Part shown: piece after piece, positions 6,892-52,781 of the stretch
How positions within the stretch are numbered: the first letter of the stretch is position 1
Layout of the letters: every line of letters begins with the position of its first letter
Assembly: GCA_951406725.2 (NCBI GenBank)
Contig: OX597818.1
Location: forward strand, 115,072,001 to 115,136,000
Reading direction: 5' to 3'
From: Octopus vulgaris
Taxonomy: Eukaryota
DNA: 64,000 nt
Made by a program: the position numbers and the translations under genes
Notes under the pieces: generated by a model
The model's input: the letters and a program-made list of their open reading frames with translations, nothing else
Databases searched by the model: none
Told to the model about the DNA's origin: nothing

Positions 6892-7063
6892 TATATATAT
6901 ATATATATATACACACATATATATATCGGGAGAGTTTACGAAAAAAACAAAAGACGAAGACAGGTGGTGTACAAAACAAACAGATGTATTAGTATAACGC
7001 TCAGGAATAGAAGTCTTTTATGTTTCGAGCCTACGCTCTTGTACAGAAATGGACACAGAAAAA

Positions 7064-12928: not shown

Positions 12929-13585
12929 GTTAATCCAAACAAGAAAGCACAAAAAAAACACAACAACGCGAGGACGTGGAACAAATGTATTATTGGACGC
13001 TCAGGAAAGAATGAAAGAAGGAGGGTTTAACGTTTCGAGCGGAGCTCTTCATCGGAAACATAGGAGAAGGAAAGATCCAGAGAAGGGAAAACAGAGGAAA
13101 AAAAATCGCCAACGGTACACACGAGGTCAAATTTTGAATGACTGGAAGGAAATGTTAGAAAGAGTGGCGAGTTTTTTTAAAAAGTAAGTGAGAACGTTTT
13201 TGTGCGGGTTGCAAGCATTGGTGGGGGGAGCAAGAAAACGGCAAAGAAGGGATTGAAGGTGTTGGAGGAAAGAGTGCAAGTCAGGCATGTTGAGAAGTAG
13301 TGAATGTCTGTGTAGGTGTAAGTGGTGGCGACACAAGTGGAAAAGTGGAAGTAGAAGAAGAAAGGTAAAAAGAGGACGAGGAAAAAGTGGAAGAGTTACG
13401 GACAAATTTTTTTGATTTCCAATCACGATTTCAGTGGCGTACTCCGGAAGAATGGTAACAGTAATCCGTAGGTGTAAAAATCCAGGAATTGGTATCCAAG
13501 GCACTCAGAAGGCCGGGGTCCGTGTGAGCGTGCGGTATATAAAGTTATATATATATATATATATATGTGTGTGTATATATATATG

Positions 13586-19989: not shown

Positions 19990-20119
19990 GAACACAGAAA
20001 GAAACAAGGAGAGAATATAAAGAATGTGTAGTGACTAGCGATCTATCATGGCGAATGCCGGACGGAGGGGTCACACAGGATAGGCCTTGTGAATGCCACG
20101 CATCCATTTTCAAGTAAAT

Positions 20120-21211: not shown

Positions 21212-21283
21212 TTCCCATGCCGCAAATCGAACCCGGGCCGCCTGGGTGAAGGCCAGGAATCCTAACCACTAGACTACATGGGA
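21212..21283 (-). tRNA. tRNA-Glu(TTC)-like gene, probably a pseudogene or retrocopy
   Basis: Minus strand reads TCCCATGTAGTCTAGTGGTTAGGATTCCTGGCCTTCACCCAGGCGGCCCGGGTTCGATTTGCGGCATGGGAA (72 nt). Acceptor and anticodon stems pair and the anticodon is TTC. Position 33 is C rather than U, the T-stem has a G-G mismatch, and there is no oligo-T terminator directly downstream. Confidence 0.85.
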
Positions 21284-24990: not shown

Positions 24991-26302
24991 TTGTGACTGT
25001 TTGTTAGATAGCTTTGACAAGCGTGCTCCAGTTTTATAATTTCTGCTGAAGACATTTTCTATTTTCTCTTCATAGAACCCTCCTCACACATGCAAAACTT
25101 CGCAATTAATTAATTACCCATTATTATACACGACACAATGAATATATCATCGCTCTGATAACATCAATTAACAACAAACCAAAAAAAGTATCCCCACCCC
25201 CGATTGCAGAAAGAAAAAAAAAACACGTCAACCAATTTTCAAAAGTTCAAACATTGCAGTAATAACGTCATTATTAAAAAGAAACACACCAACAGTTTTC
25301 TCCACGGATATAACGAACGGCAGTAATATACATCAACAGCAATCAATCACCAGTCACACACTTAACAAACAACATAGGTACTGTATACACAGATGGATCC
25401 CCCCCGACACCCCACCACAACCACCACCACCACCACCACCACTAGACATATGCATATGCCACTAGGCGACATAGAAACATACTGTACCAATTATCCATCC
25501 CAAAAAAAAATTTGCAAACTTCATGGGAAGGGAAACCAGGCAGGGTTAGATAACTCAAACATTTGACAAACATATGCGTAGGCTGGCTGTGTGGTAAAGC
25601 AGTTTGCTTCCCAACCATAGGGTTCCGGGTTCAGTCCCACTGCGTGGCACCCTGAGTAAGTGTTCCTTGTGTGTGGATTTGGTAGAGGAAAATTGAAAGA
25701 AACCTGTCAGATGTGTGTGTGCGCGCGCGCGCGGTGTGTGGTGTGTGTGTGGTATGATGTGTGTGCATACGACTGTATTTGTCCTACTACCACTGCTTTG
25801 CTTACATCTCCGTAACTTAGTAGTTCGGCAAAAGAGACCGATAGGATAAATACCACGCTTTAAAAAAAATACTGGCTGGATTCGTTCGACGAAAAAATTC
25901 TTCATGCCGGTGCCCCAGCTTGGCCGCAGTCAAATGAGTTGAAACAAGCAGACTATAGAAAATAAAACAACGCATAAGAGTGAAAAGAAAAAGCATCAAA
26001 TAAGTAAACGAAAAGAAACAAACAAACAAAAACAACATAAAATGAAGAATAACAAACACAGTAAAAGGGTAACAACAAAAACTACAAAACAAATTGTTTA
26101 ATAATATAGAGAAATTAGCCACGTCAACATCAACAACAGCAACACAGACGAACAGTAAATACTTCACACAGCGATAACAATCGGAAAGAATTATCCCACA
26201 CTTAACCCCCAAGTAAATTCGTTCATCTGATATTTCCTGAAAGTCAGCCACCAAAAGTCTCACAGAAAAAAAAAACTGCAAAGCAAAGCGAATCGTATTT
26301 AC

Positions 26303-27078
26303 CTATTTCTTTACTACCCACAAGGGGCTAAACAAAGAGGGGACAAACAAGGACAGACAAACGGGTTAAGTCGATTATATCGACCCCAGTGCGTAGACTG
26401 GTACTTATTTAATCGACCCCGAAAGGATGAAAGGCAAAGTCGACCTCGGCGGAATTTGAACTCAGAACGTAACGGCAGACGAAATACCTATTTCTTTACT
26501 ATCCACAAGGGGCTAAACACAGAGGAGAACAAACAAGGACAGACAAAGGGATTAAGTCGATTACATCGACCTCAGTAACTGATACTTATTTAATCGACCT
26601 CGAAAGGATGAAAGGTAAAGTCGACCTCGGCGGAATTTGAACTCAGAACGTAACGGCAGACGAAATACCTATTTCTTTACTATCCACAAGGGGCTAAACA
26701 CAGAGGAGAACAAACAAGGACAGACAAAGGGATTAAGTCGATTACATCGACCTCAGTAACTGATACTTATTTAATCGACCTCGAAAGGATGAAAGGTAAA
26801 GTCGACCTCGGCGGAATTTGAACTCAGAACGTAACGGCAGACGAAATACCTATTTCTTTACTATCCACAAGGGGCTAAACACAGAGGAGAACAAACAAGG
26901 ACAGACAAAGGGATTAAGTCGATTACATCGACCTCAGTAACTGATACTTACTTAATCGACCTCGAAAGAATGAAAGGCAAAGTCGAACTCGGTGGAATTT
27001 GAACTCAGAACGTAACGGCAGACGAAATACGGCTACGCATTTCGCCCTGCGTGCTAACGTTTCTGCCAGCTCGCCGCC
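26303..27078 (-). mobile_element. SINE family A tetramer: one head plus four tandem bodies of about 180 bp
   Basis: The unit ctatttctttact...ggcagacgaaatac occurs four times, flanked by the direct repeat caaagcgaatcgtattt (starting at 26284 and 27084). Confidence 0.9.
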
Positions 27079-46844: not shown

Positions 46845-46909
<65 letters not shown>

Positions 46910-46914
<5 letters not shown>

Positions 46915-47100
46915 ACCGTTAGCTCCTACACGCATTTTTTTTCTCTCCTTGTTTCTTTTCTGTGTATCTTTCTGTCGAAGAGCGTAGGCTCGAAACGTAA
47001 AAGACTTGTTCTATTTCTATTCCTGAGCGCCATACTAATACATTTGCTTGTTTGTACTCCACCTGCCTTCGTCTTTTGTTTATTTTCGTAAACCTTCCCG
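46910..47100 (+). mobile_element. Short non-coding insert in (TA)n, family H1, Penelope-pLTR-like; copies at 6927-7063(-) and 19864-~20085(-), diverged relative at 12929-13536(-)
   Basis: The three copies share one end that abuts (TA)n and differ in length at the other end. All carry a hammerhead-like motif. Confidence 0.75.
46967..47004 (+). ncRNA. Minimal type-I hammerhead-ribozyme-like motif with a variant core
   Basis: tcttt-CTGTCGAA-gagc(gtag)gctc-GAAA-C-GTA-aaaga: 5-bp stem I, 4-bp stem II, palindromic ACGT in place of stem III, and a GUA triplet. Confidence 0.6.
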
Positions 47101-47107
47101 TTATATA

Positions 47108-47157
<50 letters not shown>

Positions 47158-52012: not shown

Positions 52013-52781
52013 CTGTTTCTTTACTACCAACAAGGGGCTAAACACAGAGGGGACAAACAAGGACAGACAAATGGATTAAGTCGATTACATCGACCCAGTG
52101 CATAACTGGTACTTAATTTATCGACCTCGAAAGGATGAAAGGCAAAGTCGACATCGGCGGAATTTGAACTGAGAACGTAACCGCAGACGAAATACCTATT
52201 TCTTTACTACCCACAAAGGGCTAAAACACAGAGGGAACAAACAAGGACAGAGAAACGGATTAAGTCGATTACATCGACCCCAGTGCGTAACTGGTACTTA
52301 ATTTATCGACCCCGAAAGGATGAAAGGCAAAGTCGAGCTCGGCGGAATTTGAACTGAGAACGTAACGGCAGACGAAATACCTATTTCTTTACTACCCACA
52401 AAGGGCTAAAACACAGAGGGGACAAACAAGGACAGTCAAACGGATTAAGTCGATTACATCGACCCCCGTGCGTAACTGGTACTTAATTTATCGACCTTGA
52501 AAGGATGAAAGGCAAAGTCGACTTCGGCGGAATTTGAACTGAGAACGTAACGGCAGACGAAATACCTATTTCTTTACTACCCAAAAAGGGCTAAAACACA
52601 GAGGGGACAAACAAGGACAGAGAAACGGATTAAGTCGATTACATCGACCCCAGTGCGTAACTGGTACTTAATTTATCGACCTCGAAAGGATGAAAGGCAA
52701 TTTGAACTCAGAACGTAACGGCAGATGAAATACAGCTACGCATTTCGTCCGGCGTGCTAACGTTTCTGCCAGCTCGCCACC
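52013..52781 (-). mobile_element. SINE family A tetramer
   Basis: Four tandem bodies with a 15-bp TSD tattaacaggcattg (51996-52010 / 52783-52797). Confidence 0.9.

Follow-up and report, generated by a model that had tools for sequence, protein, structure and literature searches.

A fixed A6U change in the hammerhead motif of a Penelope-like retrotransposon from Octopus vulgaris

A dispersed repeat of about 200 bases, which occupies TA microsatellites of the Octopus vulgaris genome in tens of thousands of copies, is almost certainly the 3′ end (pseudo-LTR) of a Penelope-like retrotransposon (PLE), probably of Neptune type, and the pattern of conservation suggests that the hammerhead motif within it is probably an attenuated ribozyme still under selection in an autonomous element, rather than a relic. 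The A6U change is fixed in one lineage (H1), and U4C has been amplified in a sister lineage (H2). Residual cleavage, by analogy with a related element, is possibly protein-assisted.

Almost all canonical PLEs carry hammerheads; these cleave poorly, and in the one in vitro system they were dispensable for insertion. A single genome here offers a natural series of canonical A6, A6U, and U4C cores on close relatives, including a young intact element, so that cleavage rate can be compared with amplification success. A6U would join the list of natural core variants. Minimal hammerheads in PLE repeats, the (TA)n bias, and solo truncated copies are already known. Lunse et al. reportedly described about 150,000 PLE hammerhead variants in 2017, a collection that may list A6U. 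The literature searched, including the 56 representatives in PMC4209133, showed no case of A6U throughout a lineage of an element with recent amplification.

Copies in the analysed window

The window, that is, the whole 64,000-nucleotide stretch analysed (contig OX597818.1, positions 115,072,001 to 115,136,000), holds three H1 copies and one H2 relative, all four of which lie where the first-pass annotation had placed them. The features are as follows.

46910..~47103, + strand: H1 copy of the C7 subfamily, a 5′-truncated 3′ end of a probably Neptune-type PLE, starting 62 nt upstream of core C3
46968..47003, + strand: minimal type-I hammerhead motif of this copy, core 46972-46978, U6 at 46975
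46848..46909, no strand: (TA)n on the 5′ side of the 46910 copy, target remnant
47102..47154, no strand: (TA)n on the 3′ side of the 46910 copy, fused to the fixed element end
19864..~20080, - strand: H1 copy of the G7 subfamily, core CTGTGGA at 19985-19979, 5′ end ~95 nt upstream of C3
6927..7063, - strand: H1 copy of the A7 subfamily with a decayed motif, core CTGTACA at 7046-7040
12930..~13547, - strand: H2 mini-element of the sister lineage, made of a tandem-junction remnant, 5′ UTR, ORF start, internal deletion, and 3′ end
13024..13059, - strand: H2 hammerhead motif, U4C core CCGATGA, loop TCC, stem I GTTT/AAAC

Pairwise identity among the three H1 copies is 81-86% (E 1e-38 to 1e-43), and (TA)n terminates all copies in the window; the fixed element end joined to (TA)n would represent the start of reverse transcription. 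The 36-nt H1 motif consists of stem I, CTGTN(G/C)A, an extra A, GAGC(GTAG)GCTC, GAAAC(G/A)T, H, and stem I′. In the 46910 copy, these elements appear as stem I (46968-46971), CTGTCGA (46972-46978), the extra A, GAGC(GTAG)GCTC, GAAACGT, A (46999), and AAAG, with cleavage predicted after 46999, and in the 6927-7063 copy the motif is decayed by G8C and by ACAT instead of ACGT. The relative had been delimited as 13025-13059; its motif, loop, and stem I were correctly recognised, whereas its extent was not, since the element reaches ~13547 and includes a 5′ UTR and an ORF start (ATG at 13288). Rfam returned no hammerhead among the best 150 of 343 window matches listed, which are mostly microsatellite noise, or within the 131-nt stretch 46930-47060, and no piece of a PLE ORF was found in the 64-kb window with the H1 protein as query (tblastn, E 0.01).

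Several other features of the window were observed. A short sequence shared by three loci (20090-20110 on the - strand, L348, and L183) lies before the 5′ end of an H1 copy in two of them, the copies being unrelated, and stands alone in the third; it is probably another repeat fused to the truncated end. Related tandem arrays with a 181-185-bp unit, about four copies each and 95-96% matches, occupy 26300-27030 and 52016-52700; the unit looks like a SINE-type repeat and recurs in many of the fetched loci. A tRNA-like Rfam match at 21212-21283 (- strand; 46.8 bits, over the gathering score) may be a tRNA or a SINE head.

The parent element

The Penelope-like origin proposed at first reading is supported by extension of the longest copies, the check suggested for it. 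Upstream, these copies lead to a GIY-YIG domain preceded by CSRPRCRTC, and the parent is a unit of ~4.5 kb in which reverse transcriptase (RT), a CX4CX2C linker, and a GIY-YIG endonuclease (EN) are encoded in a single ORF. Pfam recognises RVT_1 above its cut-off (E 1.4e-7) and GIY-YIG below it (E 0.0065). The ORF contains the motifs YIDD, DKG, and IYC...YIGQT, and the linker CSRPRCRTC is followed by YCISC...LC...EH...RHF, in agreement with the CX2-5CxxC linker and the CCHH endonuclease residues. This architecture is common to 741 homologues, the best of which are 55-57% identical.

The protein search listed 150 near-identical matches, of 17,485 candidates, from which 17 loci were fetched, selected for long open frames. 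These long copies constitute a young subfamily with a mean pairwise difference of 0.45% across the ORF; 10 of them have an open frame that begins with the first Met and continues without interruption through RT and EN, and every motif in all 17 carries U6. Two motifs lie ~4.5 kb apart in 14 of the 17 loci, forming a partial tandem with a hammerhead in each repeat, and the tandem junction, which contains a short TA run, is identical in 15/15 loci.

Long ORF-bearing members with the same 3′ end occur in every subfamily checked (young U7, C7, G7, and H2), and the short copies are therefore 3′ ends of autonomous elements. C7, to which the 46910 copy belongs, is an older subfamily; among 20 loci fetched, L210 retains the whole ORF, frameshifted, with a 3′ end 94.7% identical to the 46910 copy, and the H2 whole-ORF members (L353, L351, and L356) are likewise all frameshifted. 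The suggestion that the family is non-autonomous or retrozyme-like does not hold, given intact full-length elements with U6 in both repeats and copies that are dispersed, not arrayed; partly in its favour, ~85-90% of copies form a discrete ~200-nt class, and H2 recurrently yields ORF-less mini-elements (minis). H1 and H2 are ~65% identical in the RT-EN region and form one clade (100/100) against 18 unnamed homologues, in a tree with one distant row (L360) on a long branch. The linker and the by-eye likeness of the RT rows to Neptune1_Ap, not to the Nematis rows, point to Neptune as the clade, the tree containing unnamed homologues only and the CX2-5CxxC linker being common to Neptune and Nematis (PMC8557442).

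In L121-L137, a stop codon is absent right after the endonuclease; the ORF goes on for 110-150 codons, entering a repeat region rich in pyrimidines, and measures from 1059 to 1102 aa in the intact copies. In addition, L216 (G000:C2:77213000-77220000) combines the upstream repeat and ORF (96% aa) of the young subfamily with a C7-type 3′ end, a chimera that suggests template switching or recombination between subfamilies.

Abundance and distribution of core variants

The 2.8-Gb genome (227 contigs) was searched with exact 30-nt patterns and reversed-pattern controls. The H1 pattern gave 15,487 matches, comprising 14,944 with U6, 158 with A6, and 385 with C or G, compared with 0 genome-wide for the reversed pattern of the 14,944. 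By-eye counting of the first 100 non-U/A matches listed gave 87 C and 13 G, and the C/G/A spectrum at position 6 is that of post-insertion mutation from U. A downstream 20-mer, which has 19,440 matches, supplied a sample independent of the motif, namely its first 100 matches, all in the first 14 Mb of one contig: 15 of these copies end before or inside the motif, 6 align with gaps, and 79 were scored, with U at position 6 in 76, A in 2, and G in 1 (a misaligned copy), while N7 was U in 34, A in 23, C in 15, and G in 7. The A6U change first noticed in the window copies is thus family-wide by both counts.

U4C, correctly read in the window relative, might have been a private change of that copy, an idea abandoned in view of 7,813 exact H2 matches, which make it a lineage trait. 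The minimal type-I assignment with a palindromic ACGU likewise stands, except for the canonical CUGANGA box, which is replaced by U6 in H1 and C4 in H2 in the numbers given above; stem I, the extra base after A9, stem II with G10.1-C11.1, GAAA, the palindromic 15.1-16.1, and a non-G17 are all present. With positions 4, 6, and 7 and the loop left free, the stem family amounts to 32,763 exact matches, of which descriptors requiring CUGANGA miss at least 22,757.

In a tree of 170 copies, A6 is spread over all subfamilies. An ancestral A6 subfamily within H1, suspected from this tree, was rejected, as the 30 nearest loci were mostly U6; A6 is considered ancestral because the outgroups H2 and H3 show it, which is the sole basis for this polarity. 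Hammerhead-like motifs with canonical CUGANGA and other stems, along with a third GAGC-stem family, H3 (CUGAAGA), were seen in L068, L234, L247, L051, L027:626, and L200, and could serve as natural activity controls.

Conservation, covariation, and folding

Conservation was assessed in 198 H1 copies of six subfamilies, 1.0-13.6% from their majority lines and in part collected with motif-requiring patterns; a clustering with K=8, which gave two single-copy clusters, was set aside. Across the six consensuses, the 36-nt motif varies only at N7 (U, C, A, G) and H17 (A, U), and 0 of the 30 other core and stem columns vary versus 62 of 143 flanking columns (Fisher p 4e-7). Since N7 and H17 are the free positions of the hammerhead consensus, this pattern is that expected of a hammerhead under selection. 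Invariance equal to that of the core extends to loop GUAG and to several blocks downstream, and the conservation could therefore also stem from a bound protein or a promoter role. Position 6 is heterogeneous in the oldest subfamily (24 U, 6 C, and 3 A; n=33), which relaxed constraint would explain as well.

Stem covariation, on which the first-pass annotation had placed weight, was recovered in part: among 10 sequences, stem I shows one swap (C-G to G-C), a single inherited event common to H2 and H3, and stem II is invariant. In folding models, the U6/U7 core pairs in cis with the ACGU palindrome at a probability of up to 0.97, whereas the same helix reaches at most 0.33 for natural CUGAUGA copies, but ~0.9 for CUGACGA copies. 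Such a helix would block dimer formation. The catalytic dimer is predicted to lie 10-17 kcal/mol above the minimum, and above it in 8/8 sequences. At 47021-47032 of the window, ~25 nt downstream of the motif, all three lineages (H1, H2, and H3) preserve a second GAGCG, a possible competitor for the GCUC strand of stem II.

Target sites, 5′ ends, and repeats

The proposed homing to (TA)n is supported by the flanks, where TA runs adjoin 83/100 3′ ends and 49/100 5′ ends versus a background of 8% and 7%, respectively, at random window positions. The 3′ end is fixed, ~100 nt past the predicted cleavage site, and from the identical TA-run junction we infer that reverse transcription begins internally, at a site matching the target.

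The 5′ ends were placed for 34 of the 100 copies, those that could be assigned to a subfamily with a full reference. Seven of these copies end inside or after the motif; among the other 27, 22 have 5′ ends 21-87 nt upstream of C3, one lies at -101, and four lie beyond -500, with none between -102 and -500. The 5′ ends thus form a wall ~85 nt upstream of the core, and ~200 nt is the commonest copy length. By eye, 0/100 sampled copies start at the cleavage site, and a focused count, also by eye and covering the first 100 of 1,115 matches listed, gave no excess there (~5 of 33 distinct loci within -2..+1, near the uniform expectation). Most copies read past the cleavage site, suggesting that the RNA templates were mostly uncut.

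Upstream repeats in 14 long copies measure ~520-1610 nt, not ~220 nt, and their length varies freely, to more than one unit in L136. Within one insertion, the 5′ and 3′ repeats differ at 1.07 positions on average, compared with 2.83 for repeats of different insertions (467 columns, 14 loci, p 5e-5). Among 20 H2 loci selected by likeness to the window mini-element, 13 are minis in which a 5′ part of variable extent (unit positions 245-929) is fused to a 3′ part beginning 68-140 nt upstream of the motif, with 7 of the 13 at 88-89 nt on a single reference. Splicing was considered as the origin of these minis and ruled out, as breakpoints differ among loci. Short ORF-less monomers do not form retrozyme-type tandem arrays here, occasional pairs and two-motif H2 minis being the only approach to them.

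Contigs from four runs (four organism labels) cover the stretch, with neither ends nor level visible in them; no alternative letter is listed for position 6 or for the known-variable N7, which makes this listing uninformative on the core. A loose end in contig X1 resembles a template-switch adaptor; it lies on the antisense strand of this one contig and was left out of account. In L013:1350-1700, L015:1340-1700, L012, L018, and L006, H1/H2 3′ ends are stacked head to tail with a short TA run between them; later insertions hit the TA tail of earlier ones, so that adjacent hammerhead pairs arise ~210-230 nt apart. Elsewhere (L038/L039 and L049:1-230), 3′ ends form inverted pairs, as described for other Penelope-like elements.

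Proposed mechanism and alternative explanations

In the mechanism that we favour, the GIY-YIG endonuclease would nick (TA)n, and the nicked strand would prime at the internal UAUAUA ~100 nt downstream of the hammerhead. The RNA would begin ~85 nt upstream of the core, such that the numerous solo copies of ~200 nt would come from priming at its first TA run and the long copies from priming at the second TA run, the upstream repeat of the long copies being then regenerated from the same template via strand transfer or a circle. Because the upstream repeats are ~520-1610 nt rather than ~220 nt, this start-site model requires the added strand-transfer step; folding considerations indicate that an RT-blocking hairpin could create the ~85-nt wall instead of an RNA 5′ end. 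Efficient cleavage would remove the message cap and separate the priming site from the ORF, a cost for which slow cores may be tolerated or favoured, and residual cleavage, probably protein-assisted or dimer-dependent, would hold the remaining core under selection. The fixed TA junction, the 85-nt wall, and the repeat regeneration offer testable predictions on how pseudo-LTRs are regenerated. A more far-reaching version, which we put forward tentatively and regard as doubtful, is that the two sister lineages independently toned down the U-turn (A6U and U4C) and became predominant in the genome as a result, the core being protein-gated or self-locked and off during translation and internal-TA reverse transcription, with the ~200-nt copies and minis as raw material for retrozymes. 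If true, this version would present a natural A6U hammerhead under selection and a direct handle on why PLEs retain hammerheads.

Among the alternatives, a hammerhead dead in both lineages, with its fold or sequence retained as a binding site for an element protein or as part of an internal promoter, appears rather unlikely to us. It would accommodate two independent core changes in the two most abundant lineages, the unseen genomic footprint of cut RNA (0/100; ~5/33, near uniform), a loop II equal to the core in invariance, and a predicted cis helix that locks the core; it also agrees with the dispensability of cleavage in vitro in PAc (PMC11167929) and with the success of Naiads, which thrive without hammerheads (PMC8557442). 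However, the variable sites are exactly the hammerhead-free N7 and H17, with their immediate neighbours fixed and H17 restricted to A or U in all six consensuses, a pattern not obviously expected from a purely sequence-specific DNA or protein site and one that argues for the attenuated but selected ribozyme.

That the ~200-nt copies propagate themselves as a non-autonomous, SINE- or retrozyme-like family with mobilisation in trans is improbable in our judgement, although ~85-90% of copies are short and share an upper length, a working promoter is present in solo 3′ ends of D. virilis Penelope, and the 13 ORF-less minis among the 20 examined H2 loci include some with two hammerheads. The long ORF-bearing members with the same 3′ end in young U7, C7, G7, and H2 speak against such a family, as do the scattering of short-copy 5′ ends below the wall, mini breakpoints that vary by locus, and the fact that long tandem arrays of short monomers were not seen. 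We consider it very improbable that U6 is fully competent in its context, with dimers that cleave, monomers that circularise, and circles that are copied beyond one unit from the internal TA. The circle model was already proposed in PMC4209133 and would account for the identical junction (15/15), for an upstream repeat of free length exceeding one unit in L136, for private variants common to the repeats of one insertion, and, through religation, for the missing 5′-end footprint. An endless circle nevertheless fails to explain the sharp ~85-nt wall unless RT stops there, every CUGA change tested lowers activity (PMC9901934 and PMC3088659), and the repeat data are equally explained by homology-guided strand transfer or gene conversion.

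Comparison with known elements and ribozymes

The closest counterparts are the Neptune PLEs described by Craig et al. in 2021 (PMC8557442; Neptune1_Ap and Neptune1_Nv), which share with the octopus element a single ORF with RT plus GIY-YIG at its C terminus, DKG, the CX2-5CxxC linker, CCHH, partial tandems, a hammerhead near the 3′ end, and the (TA)n bias. Unlike in those elements, the core here is non-canonical throughout (A6U, and U4C in the sister lineage). The minimal type-I hammerheads that Cervera and De la Pena described from metazoan PLEs in 2014 (PMC4209133) likewise have a short stem I, an extra base 9/10.1, G10.1-C11.1, and a palindromic ACGU replacing stem III, and are found mostly in solo copies of truncated elements; stem II of the Acropora digitifera Neptune motif in that paper is nearly identical to that of H1. 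All 56 representatives in its Fig. S3 are CUGANGA or UUGANRA, with U6 and C4 absent, in contrast to H1 and H2; the descriptor used there demanded canonical boxes, which placed U6 and C4 motifs beyond its reach.

The Poseidon element PAc of Anolis carolinensis (Frangieh et al. 2024, PMC11167929) resembles the octopus element in its internal RT initiation ~100 nt past the hammerhead, its uncut RNA template, and its AT-rich targets. The PAc priming site is non-homologous to the target, whereas the presumed TA-run start site here matches (TA)n, and PAc has a canonical core overlapping the start codon, whereas the ORF here starts ~600 nt past the junction. According to the same study, the Poseidon hammerhead is protein-assisted and unnecessary for insertion in vitro. 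In D. virilis Penelope, transcription starts at 371, upstream of the hammerhead at 496 (the same numbering being assumed). For the octopus, a 2026 repeat annotation describes recently active Penelope families, the word "ribozyme" being absent from its main text.

Natural A6C (phage Bcep176) and U4C (a viroid) affect the same U-turn positions (PMC3088659 and PMC7151607), and the latter is identical to the H2 change. These are slow yet active hammerheads (PMC3088659), and CUGA mutants have low activity (PMC9901934). They are single rare ribozymes, whereas here an element with recent amplification has A6U fixed in at least six of its subfamilies. Non-LTR retrozymes (PMC7229834; bioRxiv 10.64898/2026.07.22.740005) are also short, ORF-less, hammerhead-bearing, and derived from PLE repeats; in them, short monomers are arrayed in tandem and the type-I motifs are typically canonical and active, whereas H1 consists of scattered 3′ ends from an element with an ORF. 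The H2 minis look like retrozymes of this non-LTR kind in a nascent state.
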